Source: Escherichia phage V18. Taken from it: 64,000 bases of DNA. Of this stretch, positions 4,174 through 57,721 are shown one piece after another; the stretch's first letter is position 1; each line of letters begins with the position of its first letter. The stretch lies in sequence record NC_041937.1; one strand, written 5' to 3'. Position numbers and translations under genes: made by a program. The notes beneath the pieces were generated by a model, which saw nothing but the letters and a program-made list of their open reading frames with translations, did no database searches and was not told where the DNA came from.

Positions 4174-4355
4174 TAGTAAAAGTCCTCTACTTGTGTGTAA
4201 GTGTTTTCAAAGTTTTCCAAAACAGATGTCACATCGGATCTGTCAATATCGTACACAACTTCCCAGTTGTATGCAACCCTTTCTGCTGTCGCCTCTTCAG
4301 GACTTAGCCGCCTGCTGGGATGAAAGAATGCAATATCTGTGGGTAACTTTGTCAA
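4173..4355 (-). CDS. small hypothetical protein
   Basis: 60-aa ORF, start overlaps stop of upstream gene; codon usage similar to neighbours. Confidence 0.3.
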   Translation of the reverse strand: MTKLPTDIAFFHPSRRLSPEEATAERVAYNWEVVYDIDRSDVTSVLENFENTYTQVEDFY

Positions 4356-4440
4356 AATTTAACTCTTTTTCTGCACAAAGTTCGTGTTTCTGGTATAACA
4401 TGTTTATTACTCTTCTAAGCGGCATCCCTGCCCCCACCTG

Positions 4441-4821
4441 CTAGAATGCAGTTCGAATCCAGATAAGGTTCTTATCTGCCCAATCATAGAGGCAAGTCAT
4501 TGCGCTATTGAATTGCTCACACGGAGGATAATCTTCTTCCATCTGGCGCATAGCAGAGCCTTGCGGGTAAATATCCCGTGCTGCAAGCCACGCATCGTAG
4601 TCATCCACGGTATCGAAGTAGTATACAACATCCTCCAACTCAGGATCGAACTTTGAATTATCAGGATCCAGTTGTTCAGGGAACTTGGAGCGTAACTTGC
4701 CAGCCACAATGCTTGCCAACTCGCTAACATGCTTATTGTCCCACTCTACTAGTTTCCCGTCTTCAGCGATGCGTCCTAACCACTGATCATGAAGGTCAAC
4801 TGTTGTCTTCCACCGGGCCAT
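4441..4821 (-). CDS. hypothetical protein
   Basis: 126-aa ORF in co-directional gene string. Confidence 0.45.
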   Translation of the reverse strand: MARWKTTVDLHDQWLGRIAEDGKLVEWDNKHVSELASIVAGKLRSKFPEQLDPDNSKFDPELEDVVYYFDTVDDYDAWLAARDIYPQGSAMRQMEEDYPPCEQFNSAMTCLYDWADKNLIWIRTAF

Positions 4822-15175: not shown

Positions 15176-16047
15176 GCTGGTTTAACAGACTGCACTGCGT
15201 TAGGTCCTATTGCAGCAGCAAGTTGTTGACCCATCAATACGCGAGTATCTTTCACATAACCCCACTCGATCATAGACCCAGAGTAACCCTCTTTCTTATA
15301 CGCGGATGACCCATTCAAGTGAATAAGTCTACTTGTGCCGAAGTTATACGCCCCACCACCATTATCATCTGCAAAATTGTATATGATTCTATCCCTAATA
15401 TCTTTCCATGCCCTACCGCCAATCTCGTAGTCATGGTCATAGCATCTTTGCAGCGTTGTCCAGCAGATGATTGCCATCCTTCTACCGTTACTGAAGCCGA
15501 AAGCCTGATCGTTAAGCTCTCTCCACAAGTAGCAGTTGGTGGTCCACATGGCTCTGTGAATGTTGTACCAGTTTATAGATTTGGCAGAGTTGTTCCACTG
15601 AGTTCCGGGTAATTCAGGCCATACTGCATTAACCAGCATGTCCTCTGTCCCTGCATCTATCAAGAAGCCTCTCACCTTCTTACCCATACCTACTCTGTCT
15701 TTGGCAATCCATGCGCCAAACAATCTCAGTTTTGGACCGTAAACATCCTCTTCGCGATGCTCAAGAGAAACATACTTTAGATATACCGTAGGGTCACCGT
15801 AGGTGTCGGATATTCTTTTATCCCCTGCATATGGTGAGTCTGCAAACTGGTAGTGCAGAGCAACTTCAAAAGGATGTGTGGATGTTCCGTTTTCTGCAAG
15901 AACTTGCTTCCCGATCAGATCGCATTTAATAATCATCACGACACGTTTGTACCCCCAGGTTAACGGAACAACAAACGGAATCAGGCAGTTCACCAGGTCC
16001 CCAGAATATTGCTCCGGAACAGTTGTAGAACCACTTGTTAGGATCAT
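15082..16047 (-). CDS. hypothetical tail-associated protein
   Basis: 321-aa ORF, ATGA overlap with upstream gene. Confidence 0.45.
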   Translation of the reverse strand: MILTSGSTTVPEQYSGDLVNCLIPFVVPLTWGYKRVVMIIKCDLIGKQVLAENGTSTHPFEVALHYQFADSPYAGDKRISDTYGDPTVYLKYVSLEHREEDVYGPKLRLFGAWIAKDRVGMGKKVRGFLIDAGTEDMLVNAVWPELPGTQWNNSAKSINWYNIHRAMWTTNCYLWRELNDQAFGFSNGRRMAIICWTTLQRCYDHDYEIGGRAWKDIRDRIIYNFADDNGGGAYNFGTSRLIHLNGSSAYKKEGYSGSMIEWGYVKDTRVLMGQQLAAAIGPNAVQSVKPAWFDIPIWSSGTPGTAAINLPLGIWKSLGRT

Positions 16048-18065
16048 AGTTGTTCTTGAAGGTCTGAACCTCGTTTGCCTGTTTCAACAAGAAAACATGC
16101 CTGTCGATCAGCATATCCAGGTTGGTTAAACCACTGATTGCAAGAATAGTCCCGCATATAGTCATAATCAGAGTATTTGTTGTTTGCATCCTCGTTCCAA
16201 CACAAGTTCAGGTTGGTGCCGCCCATGCACACAATATATTCTTCAACGTATTTATCACTTCGGGTGGGAATACCTATGAACCATCTGTTAACAGGTTCGT
16301 CCCAAGCTGTGCGCTCATCTTTAACGCAGATAGCAATCCAGTCATGTGTTCCTGTTTTCTTGCACACATCGCGCTTCATACCGTAGTAGAACTCTTTAGT
16401 ATTTGGCTCAGGTGCGCTTATCAGGTAGCTCCACGCCTGGTCTGCATAGGTTCCGTTGGTGCGAGGGTCATGATCAAAGGCATACATGAGGATCCTTTCC
16501 CCACCAAGATGTTCGCCAAGAGTAACTTTGACATTCACATCGCCGTAACCGTTGCGAACAACATCCATATTGTCAATAGAGATGCCTCTAGGGGTGTAGG
16601 CAATTTTCAGTGAGTTATCCTCACTAGTGCCACCAAGGGTGATCCCTATGTTATTTGTTGTCCCGTCGGCATATCTTACTGTAGCTTCCCAGCGTATTCC
16701 GAAATATCCTGCATCATGGCTAACAATTTTCAGTGTACGAGCACCAGAGTTAGGTTTTCCAGGATCAGGCCAAGGGTTTGGGTGTTCGTGAACAGTCAAC
16801 GATGTCCCGTTTTGTTCATTGACCTGCAACATTTTACCACCTCTGCCGTTTGGGTTGAACTCCCATAAGGCCTGTGTCTGCACCAAGTTATCATAGGTAT
16901 TTCGTCGCTGATTATAAATCTCTTGGGTAACATCATAAGTTACTGATCCAGCATCCATTCTGTGGAGTCTGACCATATACGATGTATCCCCTTCTACTGC
17001 AGGCTGAGCCGCATTCAGCCCAAAGTATACAGTATCATTAACATGGAACTGTTTGTTTCTACCGGCAGTATGCCATTTACCATCAGACGGGTACGCTGGG
17101 ACGATAGTGTTCCAGTTCAAAGTCCTTGTTGTGTGGGTTCTGCCTGTGCCATGTTTGTCATGATAGGTTCTGTTAACATTTCTGTTATATTGGGTAACAA
17201 CAACTTCGTTGGCCCCGCCGTGGTTCCAGTTGGTGGAGAATTGGTAATTTGCATCTGTAACAACCGTGCCTGCAGCATTTACCAGCTCAATCTTGTCAAT
17301 AATGAACGTAGCCCCTTCTGGCTGAGGCTTCAATTTCATCTTGACCGTGTCACCAATGTAAATATTGCTAACGCTGCTAACACCGTTAACGTCGAAAATA
17401 TCATCAACACCCCAACTATCTACCGGGACATTTTTATACCAATTCTCCGGAATCTCTGTGAACCCTTGGCTGTTAAGTCTGCCGCCAAAGAGGTTATTAG
17501 ATCCTGAAAAACTACCACGTGGTATTCCTGACCACCAAAGCTTTCCATTTACCACACAGAATGTGCCTAAGAAACCTTCCCTGTGGATCCCTTGAAAATA
17601 AACGCTTTCTGTCCAACTTACTGGCTCTGTCTGTTCAACAAACTTAGCTGTTGCCAGCGCTCTGTAATGAATAAAATTGGCCCTAGGGTTGTTGTTTGCA
17701 GATTGAGCACCAATATCATTACACAAGTTGCGAGAGAATCCACGATACTGCTTAGTGCCATTGTTGAAGAAAATGCCACTTGTGCCGTACCCACGAGCCA
17801 TTATTACCTCATGAACATTCCAGGCTGTTTCGCTCGGATAGTTTATAGGGCTACGATCCCCAGTGCGGCACTCTCCGAACTTGTTATAGCCAGTAATATT
17901 AAGCTGACCATCATCAAAAAGTATAGCTAAGCTATTTACATAGGATACTGTGTTGCTTGTACCATCACTGTTGTCTATTGGGTATGACAGAACAGCAAGT
18001 TCCTTAATTCCACCCCTCTTATCGAGGAAATGACGACCAAGTTTTAGCAAAGGGATTGGAAGCAT
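16044..18065 (-). CDS. large tail fibre/tailspike-like protein
   Basis: 673-aa ORF rich in G/N/T/S/Y; position in fibre cluster. Confidence 0.5.
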   Translation of the reverse strand: MLPIPLLKLGRHFLDKRGGIKELAVLSYPIDNSDGTSNTVSYVNSLAILFDDGQLNITGYNKFGECRTGDRSPINYPSETAWNVHEVIMARGYGTSGIFFNNGTKQYRGFSRNLCNDIGAQSANNNPRANFIHYRALATAKFVEQTEPVSWTESVYFQGIHREGFLGTFCVVNGKLWWSGIPRGSFSGSNNLFGGRLNSQGFTEIPENWYKNVPVDSWGVDDIFDVNGVSSVSNIYIGDTVKMKLKPQPEGATFIIDKIELVNAAGTVVTDANYQFSTNWNHGGANEVVVTQYNRNVNRTYHDKHGTGRTHTTRTLNWNTIVPAYPSDGKWHTAGRNKQFHVNDTVYFGLNAAQPAVEGDTSYMVRLHRMDAGSVTYDVTQEIYNQRRNTYDNLVQTQALWEFNPNGRGGKMLQVNEQNGTSLTVHEHPNPWPDPGKPNSGARTLKIVSHDAGYFGIRWEATVRYADGTTNNIGITLGGTSEDNSLKIAYTPRGISIDNMDVVRNGYGDVNVKVTLGEHLGGERILMYAFDHDPRTNGTYADQAWSYLISAPEPNTKEFYYGMKRDVCKKTGTHDWIAICVKDERTAWDEPVNRWFIGIPTRSDKYVEEYIVCMGGTNLNLCWNEDANNKYSDYDYMRDYSCNQWFNQPGYADRQACFLVETGKRGSDLQEQL

Positions 18066-27621: not shown

Positions 27622-30365
27622 TTAGTCGTGAGACTCGTTCCAAGGTCCCTGGAAGCTAGAGTTTGAACGACTTACTATCACAGTAGGACAGGATATTGTA
27701 ACACCTGTTACAGCTGAGGTGGACCAGCGTGTGTAAATTTCAACAATAATGTCTATGGTTTGTTCACCCAGCCCTGTTATCCCGACTGCACACATACCAT
27801 CGTTATCGTTACCATACTTCTTGCCGTTAAGCTTAAAGAAGAATGTTACGTTCTTGCCTTGGCCTTGAACGTTATCCACGTATCTCCATCTCCAACGGCA
27901 AACCTGCTGCCGAGAGTTGTATACTGGAGGACAGTCACCGTAGGTCTTGTGTGCAACTATTGCACCTTCGAACTGGTTAGCACGGATAACGGAAGCTTCT
28001 ACACGTCCACGGAATGTACCTCCTGTTGCATCTATGGTTCCTCTAAAGCTACCATTGTTGGCATAAACATCTCCACGGAAGGTACCACTGGTGGCGTTAA
28101 CTGCCCCTGTGAAGTTACCTGCACTAGCGTTGATGTTACCTTTCACCCACACATCCATAAACTGGGCGTGCCCGTTCTTGTTAATATACCAACCGTATTT
28201 ATGGTACCCGTTGCCATCGTAGTTGTTTGACGAAATCTCTTGTGCGATCTTGGCAGAGGAGATCGTGCCATTCTCTATAAAAGCGTCTTTCAAGAACGCT
28301 TGGTTGTTCTTGATTGCGAAAGCAAGGGTTGCTGTTCCATTGCCGGGGTTGTATACCGCAAAATTGTTTGCACTAACCATGAAGTAGGATTGAACTTGGC
28401 CCCCAGACCCTTCCATCCCCAACTGGATACCTGCAACATATTTAAGCAGCGTGCAGCGCATTCTACAAACTGAGAACTACCAAAAGCGTTTGTGGTTCGA
28501 ATATACCAATAATAAACCTTATCGTTCTGCAGACCTTCAGATGTCCAAGTTGAACCAACACCCATACGGGTGGCGTTTGAAGTAACGGTTGCATCGCTGG
28601 TGTCGGGCAACCTTGTCATACCAGATGTCCAAAAGTCATACTGGGTGCTTACACTTGCTAAATCCCTGCTGTGTGGAATCAAGGTGATAGCAAAGTATCC
28701 CTGCTTAACCTCTACAGAAACAGGAGCTTCAGGTGCCTGAATGTTAAACTCGCAGTACGCTTCTGGAGATACACCACCTTTATAAGATGTTGCAACCACG
28801 GTTGCTGTGTATGATCCTTTGGTCAAGCCTTCTACTCGGACAAACTGCTCAACTGTCTGTGCTGTCCAAACAATCTCTCCGTTCTTTCTTACCTGCACAA
28901 TATTTTGAGCGTAAGTTCCAACGTTGTCCCAAGCCAAAACACCGTGAGTTACTTCCCCGGCTTGGAGAACGGAATATCTGAAGTTTTGCGGTTGAGCTAC
29001 ACCAGATGGAGATATCGGAATATCTACATTGCCAGAATCCGGAAGTTGCCCTGTGGCATCATTCCACTCTTTAGCATCTTGACGAAGTTTTACCTTGACA
29101 CCACCCTTTTTGGTAAACTCCCATTCAAGAACCCTCATTTCTTGGCCCACTATACCAATACTTGGAAGGTTCATTGTAACGTAACGACCAGGTTTAAATT
29201 TAAAACCCCGCATATTGCAGGTGACTTCAATAATCCTGCCAGCTCTAGCGCGTCTTAAGAAGATTGCAGAAACACGCTGAGCTTGATAAGGGCTGGTAAC
29301 AAAGCGATAGTCTATATCGATTATCTTTCTTTCTCCATCCTTCTCTATCCACTCTGGGACAAACACTGATGGAAAATCTGTTTCAGAATACCCTTTAGTC
29401 GGACTGGTGAATCTGCCAGTTATTGTGTTGGATCTTTTGTCAAACGAGGCTTCCGGATAGATCTTGACCTCACCACAGACACAGTCCTCACTCAGTGTCA
29501 TTGTTGCTGGACCATAATATGCACCTACCAGCAGTCCATACTTACCAGCTACATAACTGAGATCTGCACCACAAGCTTTCAGCATTTCTGCCATAATACT
29601 TGCTGGAGCCTCATCCATGTCGAACTCACCATTGATGGTGTAACGGCGCTCACTAGTTCCGTCCGCGTTTCTTACCGCCTCATCGCATATGTTGGCAGCC
29701 TCCTTGAAGGACTCCCAGTTGATGGTTTCGTCAGGACATTTAAGGTACGTTCTTAAATAATCTAGAATCACCAAGGCCGCGTTATTGGTATACACCTCTT
29801 TACTGATACGAGGATCATAGCATTTTTTACCAACCTTGACGAGTGTAACGTTTGGCAACCCAAAAGGGAACTTGTTAGGGTCAAACCTGAAGCTGGCACG
29901 TAGCCAACTGATCCCTCTACCTATCATGTCTGGTGACCACGATGGGCAGTGTGTACCCATGAAAGGATCAGATGTTTTTCTGTCGTTATGTAGCTCCCAC
30001 GATACCAAATCTCCATACGAGGAAATAGGATTACCGTCGATAAGTATGTCCTCTATACCTTCCAGAGGGTGATTGGCAAGAACAATAGCACAATGGAGGG
30101 TTCTGTCGCTATCCTGCTCCAAAAACGCAAGCAATCCAGATGTGCGTGTCTTTCCATACACTACAGAGCAAGGTGCAGCAGAAGATCTGAGAAGCTTTTG
30201 TCTATCTTGCTGACTTCTGTAAGATTTGTTGCCCTCAAAAATCTTATCCAAAGTTCTGGTGGTCACAGTGTTCAGGCTGTCAGCCAGAGCTGCCTTGGAT
30301 GCGTTCCAGTCATAACTTGAAGATCTTGCAGAAGCAACGATGTTATCAATCATTGCAATTGGCAT
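27622..30365 (-). CDS. lambda J-like tail tip/host specificity protein, interrupted by a frameshift near 28440..28465
   Basis: 28290..30365 carries APEAPVSVEVKQGYFAITLIPH and YYWYIRTTNAFGSSQFVE, closely matching my recollection of lambda J; 27622..28461 in another frame continues with KYVAGIQLGME... and fibre repeats. Confidence 0.6.
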
Positions 30366-31368: not shown

Positions 31369-31932
31369 CTATATTATCACCTTTTTGCATAGCATCGACT
31401 TTTTGCTTAATTTTATAAATATCTCTGATATGAAACCTACCTTCGGAGATTGAGTTATTATCTTCATGGTGTCCCCTGCGGCAATAGGTTTTCTAAGTCT
31501 TGGCGATATGCTTATAACAGCAGACCCAACACCATCACTACGCACTGGAGCTGTTACCACTTTCAATTCATCATTGACAGATATTTTATCTCCAGCTCTG
31601 GCTATGTCTCTGTTTGGCTCCCATCCGACCGTCTTCAAAAAATCGTCGTTACCAGTAGGCCCAAGGGCGATTGGCTCATTAGCTGTTACTGAGTGACCGT
31701 AAGTTTTAATAAGAAAGATGTTCCCATCTTTATACACCTGATCAACAAAGCTCTTAAGCTCTAGCAACTGTGACTCGCTGATATTGGAAACTGTCAAAGT
31801 GCCTTTCCAGTTAGGTGTGGCATAGGTTACTTTTTGCGTTTTACCTGTAAACGGACTTTTAAACGTAACAATATCTGCCAGCAGCTCCAATCTAATATCT
31901 GGAAGATATCTAGGCCTTTCCCATAAAAACAT
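31369..31932 (-). CDS. minor tail protein
   Basis: 187-aa ORF in distal tail module. Confidence 0.4.
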   Translation of the reverse strand: MFLWERPRYLPDIRLELLADIVTFKSPFTGKTQKVTYATPNWKGTLTVSNISESQLLELKSFVDQVYKDGNIFLIKTYGHSVTANEPIALGPTGNDDFLKTVGWEPNRDIARAGDKISVNDELKVVTAPVRSDGVGSAVISISPRLRKPIAAGDTMKIITQSPKVGFISEIFIKLSKKSMLCKKVII

Positions 31933-31994
31933 TGTGCCTCCAGGTTAAACAATCATGATAGTTATTTTACCAGATTTTAAGTTAATACGCAATA

Positions 31995-32024
31995 CAAACA
32001 AAAAGCCCCCGCCGAAGCGAGGGC
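31995..32024 (-). terminator. rho-independent terminator (variant of CCCCGCCGAAGCGGGG motif)
   Basis: Hairpin GCCCCCGCCGAAGCGAGGGC plus U-run on minus strand, just downstream of 32032. Confidence 0.45.
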
Positions 32025-32031
32025 AAAACAG

Positions 32032-33064
32032 TTACTTCAGTTTCTCTTGCAACCCAGTAACAACCTCTGTCAATTTTTTAACCTGCTCCTCAAGGGCGGT
32101 TATTTTATCATCCTGCTCCCTGCAAACCTGGACAAGCAAGCCTGTTACAGCTGCGTAATCCACGCTGTAGAATCTTTCCTCTGTTATCAAAGGAGTTCCA
32201 TCTTGATCAGGGTTTGGGATTTCCTTTCTTTGCACGAAAGAGCTAACTGCTTCCGGCAGCGCTTCAAGCACCTCTTGTGCTATAACACCTGCATAAGGCA
32301 TACCATTCTCTTTCAAGGTGTAGGTATAACCCTTCATCTTACGGATAGCTTCTAACGCATCAGGAATAACAACTATGTTATCTTTCAGGTCTCTGTCAGA
32401 ACTCTGATTGACAGATGTGCAATTCACAGCACCGTTTACAGAAAGATATCTTGATTTATCCGGCAAGGTACCGCAATGCCATACATAAGCTGATTGAGAC
32501 TCGTCAAGAACCTTAAACTCTAGCACGTTTGGACGAGTCCCTGCACTGCCGTTGCCCCAATAATGCTGCCATCTGGAAAGCGTAGTTTCCAGAAAATGCC
32601 ACAGACAACCCGCCAACAACCATTGAACCTTCAGGTCCGTTGACGTTGCCAGCCAGTATTTTGGATGGGTTGTTAGGCCCAAACTGGTTGTTCCAGTCTG
32701 CACCAGTATGACATACAAAACCACCCGGTGCTGAGAAAGTGCCATCTTTGTTGAAGTTGTAGAATCTATGAGCTGTGCCTACAACATCGCGAACGATAAC
32801 TTGACCAGCTTCCGGAGTAGATCTGAACTCTGCCTGGCCTTGCAGTCTTGCACCATTACCACATTTAGAGGTAAAGGTGTTGTTGATCAGATCCTCTGTT
32901 CCTTCTGATGCAGCTTGGAACCCTGCGTTAGAGAACAGTGCTTTTCTAGTGGTCTGACTACCAGGACAAATGTAGTCAATACCGTCTGCCCAAAGCTCGA
33001 CTTTAGGCATGTTCATTTTGCTCATCACTGCATAGCGTTCAGGAGTCCCCAGGTAGTGCCACAT
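32032..33064 (-). CDS. tail fibre distal segment with C-terminal intramolecular chaperone (peptidase S74-like) domain; internal frameshift
   Basis: ORF 32513..33064 and ORF 32032..32745 overlap in different frames; C-terminal SSDRDLKDNIVVIPDALEAIRKMKGY...VIAQEV matches the S74 autoproteolytic chaperone signature. Confidence 0.5.
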
Positions 33065-33163
33065 AGTTCCACCACCAGTGTAGAAACCTGATGTTCCTTT
33101 GAACTCAACCAGAGGTCTGGTGTTTGTTACATCATCACCTTTGATTGCAAGACTTGGAAAGAA

Positions 33164-34963
33164 TCACCTCTGTCTGTCCAGCCACCAGTTCTGTAGTGAC
33201 ACTGTAGTGTAGCACAGTTCATTGGGTCCCCCTACAGTCCTGGCACTGGTACCACCACAAGCTATCGGTAGTGGTTCCCATTTGGCTTTCCGGTTGTTAT
33301 AAACACCCCATTCCAAACTGCCGTTACCGGATTCGTCCATCCCGCCATCCCAGATGACCATCTTGGCGGCTTTCTTAGATCCCCAGAAACCTCTTTCTGC
33401 TCCTGAACTGCGGATCCATTCTCCAAGTCCCCAGTTTGCCAGCTGACCGTTCAGATCACCAACCTGCATATATTTAGGACAATCTAAGACCCCATCCTCA
33501 CGGAAGCCTAAATATCTATGAGTTTCAGATCCTTTTGCGCCTTTGTGCAGGTGGATTGTCAACCAAGCCTTATTGTCGTTTCTTACCTCAGAGTAGATCC
33601 TATACCCATGCTCAAGGACACCGTCAGCGCTGTATTTGTCCCCGTTAACAATACCTGATGCTGACTTAACATCAGCAGAACTTTGAGACAGGTAAAGGTG
33701 CCCAAAGGTAGGGGAGTTTCTAGACCCGAGACCGATGTGTGCTCTAAAGGTATCATCGTTACGAGGTCTGACCATCGGCTGCCATGCAGTCCACTGATTT
33801 GTGTTGGCCTGGTAGGTTCTCAAATACCAAACATCTACGTTAGAGAATGGATAGTATTCCTGACGACAACCTGTACCGCCGTTAGCATTGTTCTGCCAAA
33901 CAATCAAGTGACCAGCACCAGAACCTGCAGGGTAACCATTTGCCTCAGTTGCATAGGCAGTCATCGGCTGGTAGTACACACCATCCTGATTACCAGTTAA
34001 GTTATTGATATTGAAATTTGGCTCAAGGGCTGCACGTTGCTTATAGAAAGCCCCCAAGTTAATGCGTGAACCTGCGGCATCCCTGGCACCTGTGCCGCCT
34101 TGCTCTATAGCAAGAGGTTGCCACGAAGCTGTTTGTTGGTTCCACATACCCCAACGGCCTGTTGCATCAAGCTGCAAGTACCCTGCTGTGTTTAAATCAT
34201 CTCCAGCACGGATAACTGTTCTTGTTGGGTTGTTTGCCTCTAGGCGTTTAAATTCATCACGAAGTGCTATTCTTTTTGTTGTTGCTACACCGTTGGTTAC
34301 TGCAATGGTATACATGGCTCCGGTGGTAGCGCCACGGAAAATACCATCAACAGTTGTAGTATCACGACGAGATACCACACCATTCAGAAATTTTTCACCA
34401 GCTGCTACAGAAGGGTAGTTGGTAGTTCTTCCCTCTTCAATAACTGCAGGGCCAACAAAGTTATCAAGGTGAATAACATCGCCTACAGTGTGCACTGTAC
34501 CAAAATCTACACGCTGTGCAAGGGCTTTAGCATCGTTAGCTGTCTGAACAGTAACATCCATTACATCCTGGACAGACTGCCCTTCGGCTGTCATAATCAT
34601 AGATGCGCCAATGGTAGATTCCAGCTCCTCCCTTAAGGACGGATCTGTATATACCATCCATGCAGCGTCAGTAATCCCACCATCGGAGTACGGTGAAGAT
34701 AGTGCAGGGACAGTGTGTGGAAATTCGCCTTTCCAACGCAGGTAGAGGTCTTCCTCTTCGAAGTAGGCAAAATCCATTGGGCCGTTTAACTTACCACCTT
34801 CCTTAAAGGAGATTACATGAGAAACAGTCCCATCCACATGGACAACATCGCCAATTTTTACACGACGAGTCAGGTCTGGTTGTTGAACAACCAGGTAATC
34901 ATCCTCTGTCACTGCGGTAGTGGCAGGAAGAGATTCAATTCTGACAACTTTAATATCAGCCAT
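33164..34963 (-). CDS. tail fibre protein (N-terminal anchor plus shaft)
   Basis: 599-aa ORF; N-terminal DDYLVVQQPDLTRRVKIGDVV shared with 37598..38266; ends at a TGA that is in frame with the downstream fibre segment. Confidence 0.55.
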   Translation of the reverse strand: MADIKVVRIESLPATTAVTEDDYLVVQQPDLTRRVKIGDVVHVDGTVSHVISFKEGGKLNGPMDFAYFEEEDLYLRWKGEFPHTVPALSSPYSDGGITDAAWMVYTDPSLREELESTIGASMIMTAEGQSVQDVMDVTVQTANDAKALAQRVDFGTVHTVGDVIHLDNFVGPAVIEEGRTTNYPSVAAGEKFLNGVVSRRDTTTVDGIFRGATTGAMYTIAVTNGVATTKRIALRDEFKRLEANNPTRTVIRAGDDLNTAGYLQLDATGRWGMWNQQTASWQPLAIEQGGTGARDAAGSRINLGAFYKQRAALEPNFNINNLTGNQDGVYYQPMTAYATEANGYPAGSGAGHLIVWQNNANGGTGCRQEYYPFSNVDVWYLRTYQANTNQWTAWQPMVRPRNDDTFRAHIGLGSRNSPTFGHLYLSQSSADVKSASGIVNGDKYSADGVLEHGYRIYSEVRNDNKAWLTIHLHKGAKGSETHRYLGFREDGVLDCPKYMQVGDLNGQLANWGLGEWIRSSGAERGFWGSKKAAKMVIWDGGMDESGNGSLEWGVYNNRKAKWEPLPIACGGTSARTVGGPNELCYTTVSLQNWWLDRQR

Positions 34964-34998
34964 TCTTTCTCCTGAAAGGGGGCAAACAGCCCCCTATG

Positions 34999-37596
34999 TT
35001 AAAGGTACAATCCACGGTATTGAGCATAAAGGCCTAGACCGCGAAGGATTTCGCCAGAGTGATAGCCAACCGGGTCAGAAACTGCCCAGCAGCCGTTTAA
35101 AATATTATCCCCATTAATGAAGTGGTGCTTTTGCAGTAGCTTCACACAGGCTTCCACAACAATATCTATTTGAGGTATTGTCTCTGAATACCCGCAAAGA
35201 CCTAGCCAGCAGCAACCTGCAAGCCATTCACCTACCACCCACATCCTGTCTCCTCTGTCCTGATAAGAATATCCCCCAGAGGTGTTAAAGTCTGTAGGCA
35301 GATTTCCTGAATGAGATGACTGGAATCTGTTGAGGAACCATGCCCATTTCTGGCAGAACAGGAATAGTCTTTCATCAACAGGTTCTTTATGTTTCTTGAG
35401 CTCATATATTGTGCGGCACGCAGCAACAAAAGATCTTGACTGGAGCTTAGAGTTATCTACCATCTCCCACCAACCAGTCAACCCTTCATTACCTCTTTGC
35501 CATACATAACGTGAGGCAACTGGACCCTCTGTCTTAAATGTATTATTATACCAGACTTGAGCGTCATACAGAAAGCCTATTGTATTTGACAATCTATGGC
35601 GATCTATGTTTTCTGCACCCATGCAGTAGACTGCTGGGTATTGCATGCCAGGGTAGGGCCAATTTGGCTTTTCCTCTAAGAGATAGTTTTCCTTATCTAT
35701 CATCTTTCCGGCAGGGAACACACCCGGTGTGTGCCTGTATGCACCTTGCTTGTAGTTTCTGACATAGCAATCTCCAACCTTAGCGGTTGATTCTGTCTTG
35801 CTTGCCATCCATACACTAAACCAGATTAGATAAGCATCCCTATCTGCAATATAGAATTGCGGCAGCGTGTTGACGCAATATAGATCAAACAAGCCATTAC
35901 CTATCTGCCTGTCGCTTAGGCTGAAATCTACAGAGGTGAGCCCCTTAGGATTAGCAAAGAAAGGTTTAATCTCTTCTTCGGTGTGGTGAGGTTGTGTCGG
36001 ATCTAGTTTGAAATCTCCTAGAGTAAGAGTTTCTGTTATCCATTGTCCATTAGTGGCATATAGATCAGCATACCATAACCACCTGTCTTTGTCAAGAAAT
36101 TTGACCCTTACCATCTCATCATCTGATCGATAAGTTACTGAGTTTAAAGAAACCTCTCTTCCAAAATTGAAAGTTACTTTACCTCTTGCTATATTACAAC
36201 GGGTGAAGTTGTCAGAGTGGTTGTAAATGTCGGTATCATACTGCATACTGACACTAGCGCCACCGCTCACGGCAATGTTTTCCTCTTTAGGTAAGAGATA
36301 CGGATTACCGTCTTTACCAACCACCTCTACAAAATCAGTAACCTTGGCAACTGTTTCTGTTACCTCTGCCCCTCCAAAAGGGACACCTATTCTGTACTGT
36401 TTTTTGTTATTGTTACCATCATTAAGGATGAAATGTGGTTGGAACAGAACCCCTTCTCCTCCGAAATTCATAACAATTTCAGCATCTCTGCCTATTTTGT
36501 ATGTAGTCCCTTTTTGGATTATTTCGCAAGGCTGGCGTGCGTTCATTCTAAAATTGATATATCCGTCACTATCCCTACTCATGACAGGTACTGTTCCTGC
36601 AACTAGACAAGTGCCATCTGTGAACGGGGCCTTAATCAACGTGGTCTTTCTGAACAGCTTGTCGTAGGCATTTATATCACTAAAATTAAGCAACTTATTG
36701 TAAGACTGCTTAAACGCGGTGTAATACTTTTCCTCACCTGTCAAGGTATAGAGTTGATAGCAAGCGTCACACCACATCTCTTCCCCGTCTAACTCTGTGG
36801 CTTGATTGTCTGCAACCACATTTATAGGATTTACAATTACAGGGGATCCAGCAGGTATCACCGATCCACCCTGCTCTTGTGGCAATCTCACACAGTAGGT
36901 CACCTTGTGGCTGCCTGTAACACCCTTATCCTGCAGTTGGATTGTGCCGAACTCTGCAGACGTATGACCACTATCGGCTATGCTACCGTTGGCCCAATAG
37001 CGGTTACCATCCCATGCTATATACCACTCAACCCACCAACTTAACCCGGATGTTGTCCAATCTGGGTTAGCATCTGTGCCACCGTAAACATCAGAGTCTA
37101 CAGTGTTTCTTCCTAATACACCGTTATATGCTTGAAATGCCTTGTCCAGGTATTCCCCCCATGTCGGAGATCCAGCTGGGATTTTTCCTCTACCATTGGT
37201 AAAAGATACCACCACATCTTTAAACCCACCATGTGATGGAACCCCATCTGTGGATAGAGGGTAGTGGGACAATCTTTGCATTTTACTTTCTACTGCATAT
37301 GCACCCAAAAGATGACTATTGTAAGCTTCCCAAGCATCTTTTGCCCTATCCAAGTAGAAATCGCTTTTCGATGCCCTGTATGCTTCAATGTACCCCAGAA
37401 TCAACACAGCTTGGGACTCATGCATTGCCCAATCATTATTTATCTTATTACCTGCCCACCCTGCAGCTATAAGACCATCAGGGTTTACTAGCTTATTTTG
37501 TGTGGGAGTGTTGGTAATACCTGTGTTGTTATCGAGGCACTTCCTGTGCCCCTCAATCATCTGAAATACGTTATCAATGTTGTGTTGAATACGCAT
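34999..37596 (-). CDS. large tail-associated protein, possible polysaccharide-degrading domain
   Basis: 865-aa ORF; enzymatic assignment is a guess from composition. Confidence 0.45.
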   Translation of the reverse strand: MRIQHNIDNVFQMIEGHRKCLDNNTGITNTPTQNKLVNPDGLIAAGWAGNKINNDWAMHESQAVLILGYIEAYRASKSDFYLDRAKDAWEAYNSHLLGAYAVESKMQRLSHYPLSTDGVPSHGGFKDVVVSFTNGRGKIPAGSPTWGEYLDKAFQAYNGVLGRNTVDSDVYGGTDANPDWTTSGLSWWVEWYIAWDGNRYWANGSIADSGHTSAEFGTIQLQDKGVTGSHKVTYCVRLPQEQGGSVIPAGSPVIVNPINVVADNQATELDGEEMWCDACYQLYTLTGEEKYYTAFKQSYNKLLNFSDINAYDKLFRKTTLIKAPFTDGTCLVAGTVPVMSRDSDGYINFRMNARQPCEIIQKGTTYKIGRDAEIVMNFGGEGVLFQPHFILNDGNNNKKQYRIGVPFGGAEVTETVAKVTDFVEVVGKDGNPYLLPKEENIAVSGGASVSMQYDTDIYNHSDNFTRCNIARGKVTFNFGREVSLNSVTYRSDDEMVRVKFLDKDRWLWYADLYATNGQWITETLTLGDFKLDPTQPHHTEEEIKPFFANPKGLTSVDFSLSDRQIGNGLFDLYCVNTLPQFYIADRDAYLIWFSVWMASKTESTAKVGDCYVRNYKQGAYRHTPGVFPAGKMIDKENYLLEEKPNWPYPGMQYPAVYCMGAENIDRHRLSNTIGFLYDAQVWYNNTFKTEGPVASRYVWQRGNEGLTGWWEMVDNSKLQSRSFVAACRTIYELKKHKEPVDERLFLFCQKWAWFLNRFQSSHSGNLPTDFNTSGGYSYQDRGDRMWVVGEWLAGCCWLGLCGYSETIPQIDIVVEACVKLLQKHHFINGDNILNGCWAVSDPVGYHSGEILRGLGLYAQYRGLYL

Positions 37597-37597
37597 C

Positions 37598-38266
37598 TTA
37601 GATAGCTCCTGCGATAATCAGTGCCCCGTACCAAGTTAACCCGTTGTCGTAGGTTTCCAACTTGAAAATATCTGTTGCACCAGCTGTAAATGTTAGGATA
37701 GGATCTCTTCCGTAGGACCATTTAACATTATCAGGCCAATAGACTTTGTTGCCGCCAGAGGTCTGAGTAATGCATACGGTTATAGTTCTCGCCACCCCTT
37801 CAAGACCTTCTGCTTGATTTTCAAAAGAGATTGTGGTATTTGAAGTTAGTCGAACCTTAAAGGTATCCGCAACTTCAAGATCCATATCAAGCTGACCACC
37901 GATAGATCCGTAATCAACTATTCTGCCAGAAGAAGTTGCAGCAAGCTCACCAAAAACAGACCAGGCATTTGCAGACACACCCCCAGCACCCTCTACAGTG
38001 GAGTCTGGGAGGATTATTTTAGGATAATCCCCGTTCCACGTGTAGTAGCGCTTAGTCTCTGGGTCATAAGCAAAGTCCTTCTTGCTCTTAAGATAACCAC
38101 CCTCTGTGAAATAGACTATCTTAGTGATACTAAGATCGTTGACAACATCGTCAATCTTAGCCTTTCTTGTCCCATCAGTCTGGTTGACAACCAAGAAGTC
38201 ATCACTCAGGACTGTTTCTGCATCTTCAAGATCTGGAATTGGTATTGTAGGATAAGCTACAGCCAT
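37598..38266 (-). CDS. tail protein with fibre-type N-terminal anchor domain
   Basis: 222-aa ORF; N-terminus similar to 599-aa fibre; stop is 1 nt from next start. Confidence 0.45.
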   Translation of the reverse strand: MAVAYPTIPIPDLEDAETVLSDDFLVVNQTDGTRKAKIDDVVNDLSITKIVYFTEGGYLKSKKDFAYDPETKRYYTWNGDYPKIILPDSTVEGAGGVSANAWSVFGELAATSSGRIVDYGSIGGQLDMDLEVADTFKVRLTSNTTISFENQAEGLEGVARTITVCITQTSGGNKVYWPDNVKWSYGRDPILTFTAGATDIFKLETYDNGLTWYGALIIAGAI

Positions 38267-50387: not shown

Positions 50388-51212
50388 TTATTCACCACCT
50401 TTCAGAGTTGCTTTAACAACCAGCTCTGGACGGGTGTTAACTGCCAGCATGGAAGTTTCAGATTCAATCTTCTCTTCACGCAGGTATGCAGAGTGTTTAT
50501 ACCACATGTACAGTTCCTGTGCTGGAGTGTTTGCTTCGTTAACATCGTCTGCCGGAGCAAAGTGCAGCTGGAACATCTGATCAATACCCATCGGCAGAAT
50601 GCGAGCTTCTTTCTTAGGAATATTGCCAGAGATATCTTCGATAAAGGTGATACCTTTATGCTCAAACACACGGTATACGCTGTCTTGACCGCCAGCACCC
50701 AGACGGCGACGCAGAGGTTCCTGAGCAGAGCCGTAATAGGTGTATGCCAGTTCTACCAGAGGGTCATACTGACAGGTTGTGTCACCAGGTGCATAGGATT
50801 TACCCAGAATAGCCTGGAACAGCGCTTTCTCACGCAGTGCTTCATGAGAAACACGGATACGGCGAACAACGCGGGTTACTACGTCCTGAACAGTTTTCGG
50901 AGCATCAGGTGTGAAGTAACGACGGAAGTTCTGAACATCTGCTGCGGTGATGCCTTTGTCCAGAGGGAAGAACGGGATGTTCAGGTTTTTAACCTGAGCA
51001 CGTTCACTACCAACGTAGTTACGCTCACCACCACGACGGCGTGCCGGAATGTCGGTTACAACTTCATCAACACGCTCAATCTGAGCAATTGTTGAGGTGC
51101 CGAGACGGGTTTCGAACAGATCCATACCAGTAATCAGGCGGAATTGACGCGGAACAAGGTCCAGAGTAGCACCTAAATCAACAATGCCAAATTCATCTTT
51201 ACGAGTAATCAT
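50388..51212 (-). CDS. putative major capsid protein
   Basis: 274-aa ORF, codon usage of a highly expressed gene, strong terminator downstream, position after portal/scaffold; short for an HK97-fold capsid protein. Confidence 0.45.
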   Translation of the reverse strand: MITRKDEFGIVDLGATLDLVPRQFRLITGMDLFETRLGTSTIAQIERVDEVVTDIPARRRGGERNYVGSERAQVKNLNIPFFPLDKGITAADVQNFRRYFTPDAPKTVQDVVTRVVRRIRVSHEALREKALFQAILGKSYAPGDTTCQYDPLVELAYTYYGSAQEPLRRRLGAGGQDSVYRVFEHKGITFIEDISGNIPKKEARILPMGIDQMFQLHFAPADDVNEANTPAQELYMWYKHSAYLREEKIESETSMLAVNTRPELVVKATLKGGE

Positions 51213-51296
51213 TTATTTCTCCAAAGTAAAATTGTAGCCAGCATCGCTAGAATCAACTTTGCCGAGCACGATATCAGAATATTGAGCGGTAATCAT
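51213..51296 (-). CDS. 27-aa upstream ORF duplicating the capsid gene initiation region
   Basis: GAAATAAATGATTAC occurs twice (51205..51219 and 51289..51303); uORF MITAQYSDIVLGKVDSSDAGYNFTLEK ends TAA immediately before the capsid ATG. Confidence 0.3.
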   Translation of the reverse strand: MITAQYSDIVLGKVDSSDAGYNFTLEK

Positions 51297-51380
51297 TTAT
51301 TTCCCCCGTTAAACTCTTATGCTTCAGCAGATCCAGATACTCTTTAGTTTTGGTTGCGTCCCTTGATCAGGTTCCCTTCT

Positions 51381-51728
51381 TTATCGAAGAGATCCCAGCC
51401 TACCAATACAAGACTCTGCGTCAGCTTGCGCCCATTCCCAATCAGGATGCTCTTTAGCCCAAGCCTCCTCTTCAATCTCAAAACCAAGCATGTGTGCAAG
51501 TGCTTTAGCATCATCATACCACATATCGAAGAAACGACGCAAGTATTCTTCAAAACTAAGCTCCACAGTAACTTGGCGAAGTGCCTTAACAATATCGTCT
51601 GTTAACTGCTCAGGCTTAAGATCACTCTTCATCAAAAGAGATACAGGTCTGTTGTTAGCGCTATAGCCTTGCGCCTTATGGCACAGGGCAATCCCCTTCT
51701 CTTTAATAGTAATCGTTTTTTCAGACAT
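51381..51728 (-). CDS. head protein (decoration or scaffold-associated)
   Basis: 115-aa ORF between scaffold/protease-like and capsid genes. Confidence 0.4.
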   Translation of the reverse strand: MSEKTITIKEKGIALCHKAQGYSANNRPVSLLMKSDLKPEQLTDDIVKALRQVTVELSFEEYLRRFFDMWYDDAKALAHMLGFEIEEEAWAKEHPDWEWAQADAESCIGRLGSLR

Positions 51729-55716: not shown

Positions 55717-56111
55717 TGATCCTCCTGATTGATACTCTCATTATAAATATCTATAAGCTGATCAGGAAGTGTTGACTTCTTGCCTTCAGGTGACTGGAGG
55801 TAGATAATCTGCTTTTCTTTACCTGCCTTCTCAGCCATATTTAATTTATCCTGCAGATCAGAAAGGGATTTTTCAAGGTTTTTAACCTCCTCTGCGTGGC
55901 CCATTTTAATTTTGTCGGCCTGCTTTTGTTGCTGATCAAGGATCCGTTCCCACTTTAACTCTGTTGCTGACACACCCTCTTGGTAGGCTTCATTAAGCTT
56001 AGAGTTAAACCAATATACGGCCCCAAGATAAGCTGTACCTAGCGCAGCTGCAAAAACTAAACCTTTTATGATCCCTCTATACCTACTCAGCCATGTTAAA
56101 ACTGAAATCAT
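55713..56111 (-). CDS. i-spanin (Rz-like)
   Basis: 132-aa ORF; N-terminal transmembrane segment then coiled coil; ATGA overlap with o-spanin. Confidence 0.55.
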   Translation of the reverse strand: MISVLTWLSRYRGIIKGLVFAAALGTAYLGAVYWFNSKLNEAYQEGVSATELKWERILDQQQKQADKIKMGHAEEVKNLEKSLSDLQDKLNMAEKAGKEKQIIYLQSPEGKKSTLPDQLIDIYNESINQEDQ

Positions 56112-56119
56112 TTTAAGGC

Positions 56120-56155
56120 TCCAGAAACGAAAAAACCCCGCAGCTATACAGCTAA
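56120..56155 (-). terminator. rho-independent terminator
   Basis: Composite hairpin CCCCG...CGGGG then TTTTTT on minus strand, downstream of 56210..56485. Confidence 0.45.
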
Positions 56156-56209
56156 CGGGGCGGGTTAAAATTGAGTAACCTAAATAGATCGAAACTAACT
56201 AAAAGGAGA

Positions 56210-56485
56210 CTAATACTTATCGAGCACTCGGTGGATGATTCTAACAGTAACTGCATTTTCATTCATCAAGTATGCATCTACATCTCTGTAAATATAAAAC
56301 TTCTGCTCACTATCAACAACACAAGCTACTGCCCCTTCAGAGTTGTCTTCAAAAAAGACCACCACTGCATCGCAGCTGAGTTCATGATATGACTCTCGAA
56401 GATTTACAGCCAGAGGATTGAAATCGTCACGAAAATCTACAGTATGGGTTGGATTTACACGCTCTACAATTTTAAGTGTATACAT
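56210..56485 (-). CDS. hypothetical protein
   Basis: 91-aa ORF. Confidence 0.4.
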   Translation of the reverse strand: MYTLKIVERVNPTHTVDFRDDFNPLAVNLRESYHELSCDAVVVFFEDNSEGAVACVVDSEQKFYIYRDVDAYLMNENAVTVRIIHRVLDKY

Positions 56486-56531
56486 TTTAAAGGTTCCTTT
56501 TGTTTATATATGTTTAAAGTATAACTGAAAG

Positions 56532-56608
56532 TGGTCTCCACGGAGTGATTCGAACACTCGACCTCCTGATCCCAATGGTTTATCTCTACCAAGCTGAGCT
56601 ACGCGGAG
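56532..56608 (-). tRNA. tRNA-like gene, possible anticodon TGG (Pro), anticodon stem does not pair as read
   Basis: Good acceptor stem, TTCGAAT T-loop and encoded CCA; putative anticodon loop ATTGGGA but flanking stem unpaired. Confidence 0.45.
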
Positions 56609-56619
56609 TATTTATTATT

Positions 56620-56694
56620 TGGTGGCCCTGGGTGGAATTGAACCACCGTCTGGCGATTATGAGTCGCTTGCTTGAACCTTCCAGCTACAGGGCA
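56620..56694 (-). tRNA. tRNA-Met/Ile-like (anticodon CAT)
   Basis: T-arm GGTGG-TTCAATT-CCACC, anticodon loop CTCATAA, encoded CCA; position 1:72 mismatched. Confidence 0.55.
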
Positions 56695-56770
56695 TGGTGC
56701 TGATAGCAGGACTCGAACCTGCAACCTATTGATTACAAATCAATTGCACTACCAATTGTGCTACATCAGC
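56695..56770 (-). tRNA. tRNA-Thr (anticodon TGT)
   Basis: Clean cloverleaf: 7-bp acceptor, D-stem GCAC/GTGC, anticodon stem ATTGA/TCAAT with loop TTTGTAA, T-arm GCAGG-TTCGAGT-CCTGC, CCA encoded. Confidence 0.7.
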
Positions 56771-56775
56771 AAAAA

Positions 56776-56860
56776 GGTGCTAGGTGATGGAATCGAACCA
56801 CCTATGTATTCAACGACCAATAGATTTACAGTCTACACCGCTACCTCTACGGGATAACTC
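56776..56860 (-). tRNA. tRNA-like sequence, Tyr-like anticodon arm (GTA) with long variable region; no acceptor stem found
   Basis: Anticodon stem-loop GTAGA-CTGTAAA-TCTAT and T-arm with TTCGATT loop present; 5' and 3' ends do not pair. Confidence 0.3.
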
Positions 56861-56867
56861 CCCAATT

Positions 56868-56942
56868 TGGCACCCCGTACTGGACTCGAACCAGTGTCAA
56901 CGGCTTAGAAGGCCGCTGCTTTATCCACTAAGCTAACAGGGC
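56868..56942 (-). tRNA. tRNA-Arg (anticodon TCT)
   Basis: Acceptor GCCCTGT/ACGGGGT (with G-U pairs), anticodon stem GCGGC/GCCGT with loop CTTCTAA, T-arm ACTGG-TTCGAGT-CCAGT, CCA encoded. Confidence 0.65.
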
Positions 56943-57038
56943 ACTGGGTGGCTTTCTTTTACACCTTAGCCGCCAGAAAAGGTGGGAGACCATGTTTACA
57001 ATATTACACTGTTAAGCAAAGTTTGTCAAGAAAATATT

Positions 57039-57377
57039 TTAGCTATTGCTAACAGGTTGTATTTCTGTGGTAAATGGCATAAAAGGTGCTGGTTTTTCAG
57101 CCTCTTCTACTACCACCTCTTCCTCTTCACCAAACATCTCATCATATTCTTCCTGCATTCGGTCTGCCTTATCAAGAACATACTCTGCAATGCTTTGACG
57201 AATATTTTGTTTGGTTTTCGGGTCCAACATCAGCTCTCTTAAAACTTTGTGAGCTTCTGGAACCATCGCTATAAAAGATTCCTTCATATCAAGGATGTTC
57301 TTCTCTAGCTGAATGGCGTTGGACTCCTCTTTCAGAGGTCTGCCTCTACGGCGACGCTTTTTAGTTGTATCCGCCAT
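57039..57377 (-). CDS. AT-hook-like DNA-binding protein
   Basis: Start moved to ATG 57377 with GGAGGA RBS; N-terminus MADTTKKRRRRGRPLKE contains an RGRP AT-hook-like motif; acidic C-terminus. Confidence 0.4.
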   Translation of the reverse strand: MADTTKKRRRRGRPLKEESNAIQLEKNILDMKESFIAMVPEAHKVLRELMLDPKTKQNIRQSIAEYVLDKADRMQEEYDEMFGEEEEVVVEEAEKPAPFMPFTTEIQPVSNS

Positions 57378-57721
57378 GTTTCCTCCATTATCACGTGATA
57401 GGTGGATTTTATCACAGCAAATACTGATTGTCAAGTTCGCCGCAGGGGTGTATTCCCTGCGACTTGCCCAGCGTCCTGGACCAGCAAGACCCAACAAGTG
57501 GGTTACCAGAGCACATTACCGCGCTTTGGCTCGACCTTATTACAGGTTGGCTGGGGTCACATCGTCATGTGCTGGCTGCCCCTACCATTTTAAGTGTGGT
57601 GCACTATCAAGCCCTCTAAGGGGAACTCAGTCTTCTCCGAACCCTGTTTCAAAACATCCGGAGATAAAGCCATCAAATTCATCTTTAAATCGGATATTCA
57701 TCATGATACACGAAAACAACC

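Follow-up and report, generated by a model that had tools for sequence, protein, structure and literature searches.

Three missing blocks divide the rV5 gp41-type lateral tail-fibre gene in the sequence of Escherichia phage V18

A stretch of 64,000 nucleotides of the Escherichia phage V18 record NC_041937.1 (referred to below as the window) carries on its minus strand a tail fibre that is spread over three open reading frames. The locus raises the question of whether these interruptions belong to the biology of the gene, as recoding, decay or a true gene boundary would, or to the sequence as it was written. An earlier note had described the three ORFs, the TGA that closes the longest of them and the common phase of the first two, and the coordinates, the stop codon and the phase were all confirmed. 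The 599-aa and 183-aa ORFs are in phase (34963-33064 = 1899 = 633x3), and the frame stays open from the TGA to the ATG of the 183-aa ORF over 33 codons, as read from the sequence, rather than the 34 that had been counted. The features of the locus are listed in Table 1.

Table 1. Features of the fibre locus in the window; codon numbers refer to the intact gene of relatives
Feature	Position	Strand	Remarks
599-aa ORF	33164..34963	-	terminates at TGA 33164..33166
183-aa ORF	32513..33064	-	starts at an internal Met of the middle piece
237-aa ORF	32032..32745	-	overlaps the 183-aa ORF out of frame
N-terminal 578 codons of the lateral tail-fibre gene (rV5 gp41 homologue)	33229..34963	-	ORF, Pfam, PHROG and nucleotide identity
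Junction D1	33228..33229	-	179 nt missing = codons 579-638; +2 shift
Retained island of 74-79 nt	33155..33228	-	ancestral codons about 639-662; out of frame in the window
Junction D2	33154..33155	-	235 nt missing = codons about 663-741; original frame back
Middle piece	32566..33154	-	ancestral codons about 742-937
Junction D3	32565..32566	-	467 nt missing = codons 938-1093; +2 shift
C-terminal 177 codons and stop	32032..32565	-	carries the S74 chaperone
Intrinsic-terminator-like hairpin GCCCTCGCTTCGGCGGGGGC, then T-run	32005..32024	-	directly after the stop codon of the gene

The window belongs to an rV5-like (Vequintavirus) phage of E. coli and the three ORFs are parts of a single gene, a homologue of the rV5 lateral tail fibre gp41 (YP_002003543.1, ~1270 aa). 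That a single fibre gene is broken here, as had been supposed, is borne out by PHROG 6578 (1210 positions), of which successive stretches are matched by the N-terminal piece (35-536, E = 1e-229), the middle piece (695-869, E = 2e-79) and the C-terminal piece (1010-1202, E = 7e-75). The gene lies between the homologues of gp42 (865 aa) and gp40 and is collinear with its counterparts in rV5, BP9, WM, EduardKellenberger, Gotham and JES2013; its orthologues include XCZ60127.1 (VB-EcoM-WM), WXX17762.1 (BP9) and QXV77720.1 (EduardKellenberger). It shares with the gp41 type this position, the Tail_spike_N and S74 domains and 96-99.7% nucleotide identity in the retained parts. It differs from it in lacking the three codon blocks of junctions D1 to D3, and it is because these codons are absent that the fibre is split into three ORFs.

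The N-terminal anchor Tail_spike_N (Pfam PF18668, E = 1.1e-10) occupies residues 46-103 (about 34655..34828); a long shaft and the distal region lie between it and the C-terminal S74 chaperone. The anchor domains of the CBA120 spikes TSP1-4 and of phi92 (PDB 5w6h, 4oj5, 6nw9) match the N-terminal 50-150 residues of the window fibre; in contrast to these spikes, its body is that of a fibre with a chaperone and not of a beta-helix depolymerase. The S74-type chaperone previously noticed in the C-terminal part of the 237-aa ORF was recovered with PF13884 (Peptidase_S74) at E = 1.8e-14 and 54.2 bits, against a gathering cut-off of 22. The match covers profile positions 1-57 of 58 and residues 116-167 of the ORF, starting from SDRDLKD, and the intramolecular chaperone domain is located at about 32245..32400 (-). 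At the start of S74 domains, a cleavage-site serine and a catalytic lysine stand five residues apart, as known from work on endosialidases. The same spacing is found in the sequence S-D-R-D-L-K, an S-D-x-x-x-K motif read directly at 32400..32383 (-). The PF13884 match and the motif are common to S74 fibres and spikes such as the K1F endosialidase, the T5 L-shaped tail fibre pb1 and the S16 long tail fibre tip (PDB 6f45), the last of which also shows a weak sequence match to the C-terminus of the window fibre. Unlike in these proteins, the domain and the fibre body stand in different frames in the window, whereas it is fused in frame in all relatives; as written it could thus not act in cis, and self-cleavage in V18 is putative.

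In relatives the gene is continuous. In WM, rV5, EduardKellenberger and BP9 one annotated CDS of 1270-1272 aa spans it, in Gotham one of 1481 aa, three IMG/VR contigs contain one fibre ORF each (1268-1479 aa), and each of the megablast matches listed has one fibre feature at the locus. The window, with ORFs of 599, 183 and 237 aa, has no continuous frame that reaches about 1270 aa here, and the split of its fibre gene is judged to reflect a defect of the sequence rather than a gene of another architecture. Two fibre genes meeting at the TGA, the arrangement that the earlier note named as evidence against its own view, occur in none of the five annotated relatives and three contigs, and a genuine gene boundary is rejected since all relatives inspected have one ORF. 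The intact protein measures about 1270 aa and not the roughly 1000 aa that had been expected from joining the pieces.

The window gene comprises 2932 nt versus 3813 nt for the intact gene, i.e. 881 nt are missing in total. The three junctions were placed by BLAST pieces, junction read-out and MAFFT. Four collinear BLAST pieces cover the query wholly, and between them the subject contains a further 179, 235 and 467 nt. What is retained is closely related to known phages: the N-terminal piece has 96.3% nucleotide identity to VB-EcoM-WM and BP9, the island shows 98.7% identity to both WM and Gotham and, in the ancestral frame, none of its 24 codons differs from WM, and the middle piece is 99.66% identical to Gotham over 589 nt. 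The 179-nt block missing at D1 was found in every relative examined. Positions 33060-33330 are matched by 98 phage records, and all full-coverage matches consist of three pieces distributed over 665-688 nt for a query of 271 nt. The block missing at D3 is the distal part immediately before the chaperone. A mosaic boundary between Gotham-type and WM-type alleles at this junction was rejected, Gotham and WM being homologous 130 nt past it.

The losses shift the reading frame successively by +2 (D1), +1 (D2, back in frame) and +2 (D3). The TGA is exposed because the loss at D1, located 60-odd bases upstream, shifts the frame: its bases belong to the codons GGT GAT (Gly-Asp), which are unchanged but read out of frame, and GGTGAT is the same in the intact genes of relatives. 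An opal mutation, one of the origins that had been proposed for this codon, is consequently rejected. The original frame is restored by D2, about 10 nt downstream of the TGA, since 179+235 = 414 = 138 codons. The second break had been ascribed to an indel near a C4 run; an indel does lie at 32565/32566, a few bases from GGGG/CCCC, but it is a loss of 467 nt and not a homopolymer slip. The three losses thus produce, by arithmetic, both the early TGA and the C-terminal ORF in another frame, and the direct reading shows that the three missing blocks account fully for both breaks.

Programmed recoding would read the same locus as an opal readthrough at the TGA followed by a ribosomal frameshift near the C-run, yielding a fibre of about 1000 aa. 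The frame is indeed open past the TGA, and programmed frameshifts are used in phage tail genes, as in lambda G/GT. However, all relatives have one continuous ORF, with neither a stop nor a change of frame at the two sites, and the missing 881 nt leave neither break to be explained. Ahead of the TGA, 24-25 codons depart from the frame of the conserved protein, so that readthrough would translate an out-of-frame peptide. An Rfam E-value scan of 31800..35200 returned no recoding element, with a chance-level rsmX match only (E = 0.9). Readthrough and frameshifting, refuted by a site that is not conserved in relatives and by the lack of an Rfam element, can be considered practically impossible, and the TGA is neither mutation, nor readthrough site, nor boundary. 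A gene inactivated long ago and decaying since then could be suspected from the several lesions in a single gene. Read in the ancestral frame, however, the retained codons translate into 975 aa that contain no stop and are 98.5% identical to WM. Compared with WM, the middle piece has 23 synonymous and 1 non-synonymous differences and the C-terminal piece 14 and 3, at a dS of about 0.13-0.2, and the retained pieces contain neither small indels nor point nonsense mutations. After the TGA, dN/dS amounts to 0.011 (middle) and 0.057 (C-terminal), as low as among intact relatives. An old pseudogene, rejected on account of this low dN/dS in the retained pieces, is exceedingly improbable.

Losses of this kind extend over the whole window. 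About 17 losses of at least 24 nt are specific to it, about 14 of them besides the gp41 blocks, in tail and head genes, and no window-only insertion of at least 10 nt was found across it. The major capsid gene has an internal loss of 186 nt (62 residues; 274 aa vs 336 aa), most of the decoration gene is missing, gp62 lacks three blocks and the J-like gene gp37 lacks 1039-1345 nt, half of the gene. Seven of the 17 loss lengths are divisible by 3, near the chance expectation of one third, and thus no selection to keep frames is apparent. Microhomology at the junctions is 0-5 nt, near chance, which led to the rejection of repeat-mediated deletion and of a de Bruijn mis-join; only the loss in the tRNA region at 56817 departs from this, with 34 nt that align to both of its sides in rV5. 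Junction k-mers had no match in IMG/VR, JGI metagenomes or GTDB genomes, nothing carrying the V18 junctions was found in E. coli genome and plasmid collections, and the junctions are common to no other record among those searched. A search for identical copies of the window's proteins found none on record. In Vequintavirus, allelic variation is confined to the three largest lateral tail-fibre genes according to the legend of S5C Fig in Maffei et al. 2021 (PMC8594841); from their position they are taken to be gp41, gp37 and gp27, the same tail genes as those affected here.

The losses follow the divergence between two phage genomes. Where the local identity between BP9 and JES2013 is below 0.6, 93-95% of BP9 columns are missing from the window; over bins of rising identity the missing fraction falls from 85% to 66%, 42%, 19% and 4%, and it is 0.8% above 0.95. 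Divergence predicts loss with an AUC of 0.935 for BP9-JES2013 and of 0.75 with rV5 as comparator, and the junction flanks have a mean identity of 81% to JES2013 versus a background of 95.5%. Divergence between BP9 and rV5 was found insufficient as sole driver, as head-gene losses occur where these two are 98-99% identical; the JES2013 head allele is about 77% identical, and adding JES2013 resolved the head-gene losses. When tiles of BP9 were mapped on JES2013 in a simulation, three zero-coverage blocks appeared in the gp41 homologue and none elsewhere in the gene. One of them (35199-35665) corresponds within 1 nt at both ends to the observed D3 (35200-35666, both in proxy coordinates). The recall of this simulation was 35-78% depending on the settings, BP9 and JES2013 being mere proxies for the sample and the reference. 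Small losses where BP9, rV5 and JES2013 agree (41 nt at 4330, 57 nt at 27823 and 60 nt at 62781) fit such a drop-out only because the window flanks are locally divergent (60-90% identity). Moreover, retained islands of 34 and 42 nt are below typical read length, so that a drop-out needs local or soft-clipped alignments, and as the window begins 71 nt before rV5 coordinate 1, the JES2013 record in its deposited form did not serve as the reference.

Since the missing stretches are those that a BP9/Murica-like genome cannot align to a JES2013-like one, a drop-out from an alignment-derived or reference-guided consensus is the most likely origin of the losses, with a probability of roughly 0.8 as judged from their pattern. 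A sample genome of the BP9/Murica type would have been aligned to a JES2013-like genome, and stretches too divergent to align would have been dropped from the consensus instead of being filled with N. Reference-mapping consensus sequences from which zero-coverage regions are removed rather than N-masked are a known class of assembly artefact. The likeness to this class is that losses run in one direction, without microhomology or preference for a frame, and that their positions are set by alignability to another genome, the threshold lying at about 75-80% local identity; the difference is that the drop-out is deduced here from the loss pattern and not from reads. In the window, the losses match the unalignable stretches, are one-sided and frame-blind, and affect essential genes. 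The same evidence would suit another technical route, in which contigs or aligned blocks were joined without gap characters, a core-genome alignment was exported or the sequence was deliberately edited. Nothing specific speaks against this route, a variant of the drop-out rather than a biological rival, and the evidence singles out no software step; it is nevertheless rated as decidedly unlikely. Real deletions, in a phage or defective genome faithfully recorded, would have removed parts of the gp41 fibre and left as product only a 599-aa stub without distal region and chaperone. On laboratory hosts, phages can manage without lateral tail fibres, of which Vequintavirus has three sets (PMC8594841), and clean junctions with 0-5 nt microhomology can also be produced by illegitimate recombination. 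Yet comparable losses affect the major capsid, decoration, gp62 and gp37 genes, and as written the window cannot encode a viable virion. In addition, no natural deletion process explains the removal of 93-95% of the strongly JES2013-divergent sequence, selection is not relaxed in the pieces after the stop, and no junction recurs in the other records searched. Real deletions are accordingly unlikely. Their extreme form, a natural defective Vequintavirus that lost nearly every lineage-specific block and persists only with a helper phage, for example after co-infecting divergent phages recombined with loss of non-homologous loops, is very improbable.

The real phage probably carries an uninterrupted gene for a fibre of about 1270 aa. 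Errors would follow for the fibres gp41, gp37 and gp27 and for three head genes if gene calling, host-range prediction or domain inventories relied on the window, and the finding serves chiefly as a quality flag. As a practical check for any "broken" phage gene, it can first be asked whether the breaks fall where sequence present in close relatives is lacking, and only then whether recoding or a pseudogene is involved. Were the losses real, which the evidence does not favour, the genome would be a non-viable or helper-dependent derivative, in either case an unusual one.

The surroundings of the gene call for two observations. On the minus strand of 31800..35200, the hairpin that follows the stop codon is the sole strong G+C-rich one (8 pairs, 7 of them G-C) and marks a single end of the transcription unit. 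The neighbour genes 34999..37596 and 37598..38266 begin with an N-terminus similar to that of the fibre.

The breaks in the tail-fibre gene follow arithmetically from the absence of three blocks; apart from these, the gene is intact and conserved. The three ORFs (599, 183 and 237 aa) with their phase relations, as well as the TGA at 33164..33166 and the S74 signature, on which the earlier note had based its picture of a broken fibre, were all confirmed in the sequence. Its proposal that the ORFs form one gene is borne out as well: all three match PHROG 6578 (tail fibre, 1210 positions), at positions 35-536, 695-869 and 1010-1202, which together with the domain layout identifies them as fragments of a single gene. 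A strong terminator-like hairpin is found only after the final stop codon. The gene, part of a minus-strand tail-fibre cluster, codes for a Vequintavirus lateral tail fibre of the rV5 gp41 family. Its homologue is a single CDS of 3813-3819 nt (1270-1272 aa) in phages VB-EcoM-WM (WM), rV5, EduardKellenberger and BP9 and of 4446 nt in Gotham, and single ORFs of 1268-1479 aa occur in three IMG/VR contigs; the copy in the window spans 2932 nt. As written, the window could yield only the 599-aa stub from it. Megablast of the region and the surrounding 25 kb identified over 120 E. coli myophages of the rV5-like Vequintavirus group, with identities of 93-97%, and the window aligns collinearly with positions 1 to ~69,900 of rV5 (NC_011041) and with BP9 (PP488543).

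Against each relative, the gp41 copy is fully covered by four collinear BLAST pieces, and three stretches of the relative, D1 to D3, are skipped. Base-by-base inspection found the joins flush, with an ambiguity of 0-3 nt. D1 shifts the frame by +2, and the island of 74-79 nt kept between D1 and D2 is therefore read out of frame; the TGA is an unchanged GGT GAT of this island, exposed by the loss of D1 in the out-of-frame reading ..G GTG A... D1 and D2 add up to 414 nt, or 138 whole codons, which is why reading continues open and in phase past the TGA; the S74 part is out of frame because D3 shifts the frame once more. Translated in the ancestral frame, i.e. that of the intact relatives, the kept codons encode 975 aa, free of internal stops and 98.5% identical to the WM protein. 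Since these codons are intact and stop-free, the TGA is neither an opal mutation nor a readthrough site nor a gene boundary, the three options previously offered for it. The second break, attributed to an indel near a C4 run, is indeed an indel but of another kind, a loss of 467 nt. An Rfam scan of the fibre region found nothing relevant, and neither recoding nor any other new biology is at work in the fibre gene.

Compared with WM, the middle piece carries 23 synonymous and 1 non-synonymous changes (dN/dS 0.011) and the C-terminal piece 14 and 3 (dN/dS 0.057); dN/dS downstream of the TGA is as low as among intact relatives. Judged from these substitutions, purifying selection acted on the gene in its original frame during essentially all of its divergence. 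The low dN/dS of the pieces downstream of the TGA excludes an old pseudogene. Among 98 phage records with a match to 33060-33330, all full-coverage matches come in three pieces spanning 665-688 nt. The junction k-mers had no match in IMG/VR, JGI metagenomes or GTDB genomes, and no sequence with the fibre-gene junctions was found in E. coli genome and plasmid collections.

Features of the window, with losses relative to related phages
Feature	Position	Strand	Details	Basis
gp27 homologue, large Ig-like fibre gene	15805..17813		losses of ~153, 59, 99, 32, 24 and 696 nt	
gp37 homologue, J-like central fibre gene	28290..30365	-	losses of 57 nt at 27823 and 1039-1345 nt at 28444	
rV5 gp40 homologue	31369..31932	-	other flank of fibre gene	
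gp41 homologue, tail-fibre gene	32032..34963	-	D1, D2, D3: 3 of ~17 window-only losses	
Tail_spike_N (PF18668)	residues 46-103 of 599-aa ORF	-		Pfam
Peptidase_S74 (PF13884)	residues 116-167 of 237-aa ORF	-		Pfam, 54 bits (cut-off 22)
D1	junction 33228/33229	-	179 nt, ancestral codons 579-638	BLAST against relatives
D2	junction 33154/33155	-	235 nt, ancestral codons 663-741	BLAST against relatives
D3	junction 32565/32566	-	467 nt, ancestral codons 938-1093	BLAST against relatives
rV5 gp42 homologue	34999..37596	-	865 aa, upstream neighbour of fibre gene	
Further upstream gene	37598..38266	-	222 aa	
Major capsid gene, rV5 gp60 homologue	50388..51212, junction near 50762	-	186 nt lost in frame	
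Head-decoration gene	around 51226..51395		354 nt lost, most of gene	
gp62	around 51226..51395		losses of 367, 83 and 116 nt	
tRNA cluster	56620..56942		Met, Thr and Arg present	

Losses of this kind recur elsewhere. Three-way alignment with rV5 and BP9 gave some 17 losses of 24 nt or more that are confined to the window, but not a single insertion of 10 nt or more that is. Only 7 of the 17 lengths are divisible by three, and junction microhomology is at about chance level. The gp37 homologue is reduced to an ORF of 691 aa, where relatives have 1279-1381 aa; the kept gp27 sequence reaches no more than 82-90% identity to rV5, BP9 and JES2013, suggesting that it is a separate allele. The major capsid protein has 274 aa instead of 336, residues ~151-212 being absent, and islands of 94, 42 and 34 nt (the latter two gp62's own), 98-100% identical to rV5, persist in the area of the decoration gene and gp62. 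The remaining losses are a few small ones in other places. A genome lesioned in this way in capsid and hub genes cannot produce virions by itself. The junction of a 401-nt loss at 56817 differs from all others in being located within repeated sequence, as 34 nt there align to either side in rV5. Ser and Tyr tRNAs were not found in the scanned stretch 56000..57600, and the tRNA set fits the layout of JES2013, not that of rV5 (Ser and Tyr) or BP9 (Tyr). Like that of BP9, the large terminase gene is intron-free at ~54678 and ~54996. At these sites rV5 carries insertions of 979 and 320 nt, of which one contains an HNH endonuclease, and JES2013 has an 884-nt insertion carrying an endonuclease VII gene. 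These differences are normal intron presence or absence and no defect.

The losses follow local divergence. In gp41, the missing stretches are exactly those where WM/BP9-type and rV5-type alleles are least similar (47-76% identity), and the kept island and pieces are at ~80% or higher. The head-gene losses did not initially fit this pattern, rV5 and BP9 being 98-99% identical there; a search found a second head allele, ~77% identical, in JES2013, and the head losses lie in troughs of rV5-JES2013 identity with the islands on its peaks. When the BP9 columns missing from the window in a four-way alignment were binned by local BP9-JES2013 identity, the chance of being missing climbed steadily as identity fell: 0.8% above 0.95, 4% at 0.85-0.9, 19% at 0.8-0.85, 42% at 0.75-0.8, 66% at 0.7-0.75, 85% at 0.6-0.7 and 93-95% below 0.6. 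The AUC was 0.935 with JES2013 as comparator and 0.75 with rV5. Identity to JES2013 averages 81% in the junction flanks against a background of 95.5%. Small losses at places where rV5, BP9 and JES2013 agree mutually lie in patches where the window itself diverges: 4249..4456 and 62536..62859, below 80% identity to all three, hold one each (41 nt at 4330, 60 nt at 62781).

Simulated mapping of BP9 tiles on JES2013 left three zero-coverage blocks in the fibre gene, with an island kept between two of them; one simulated block, 35199-35665 in proxy coordinates, compares with an observed D3 of 35200-35666. The best explanation, with a probability of roughly 0.8, is that the blocks were dropped during alignment or read mapping: the sequence would have been built against a JES2013-like genome, and unaligned stretches would have been removed rather than masked at consensus building. 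The local-identity threshold seen here, ~75-80%, is typical of permissive mappers. The main rival, a less probable one, is that the window is a real genome, multiply deleted and non-viable; real deletion would have to explain both the loss of nearly all lineage-divergent sequence and little else, and losses that are blind to reading frame and gene essentiality.

The N-terminal anchor of the fibre resembles the spike anchors of CBA120 and phi92 type, and its C-terminus resembles S74-chaperone fibre tips. In the S74 family, the chaperone folds the trimer and then self-cleaves; by analogy, the chaperone of an intact copy would fold the trimer and self-cleave at the Ser of SDRDLK. The two genes directly upstream have an N-terminus resembling that of the fibre, consistent with several fibres or spikes having a common type of anchor domain, as in branched adsorption apparatuses of the CBA120 and phi92 type. 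The lateral fibres of Vequintavirus phages form three co-expressed sets, and allelic variation among the fibre genes is confined to the three largest (Maffei et al. 2021, PMC8594841). By position, these are taken to be gp41, gp37 and gp27, and the same three are the tail genes with losses in the window. Finally, 18 MG0656xx records labelled 'Campylobacter phage' hold rV5-like coliphage sequences, one of them (C11, MG065652) being flagged UNVERIFIED; they are probably contaminants or mislabelled.
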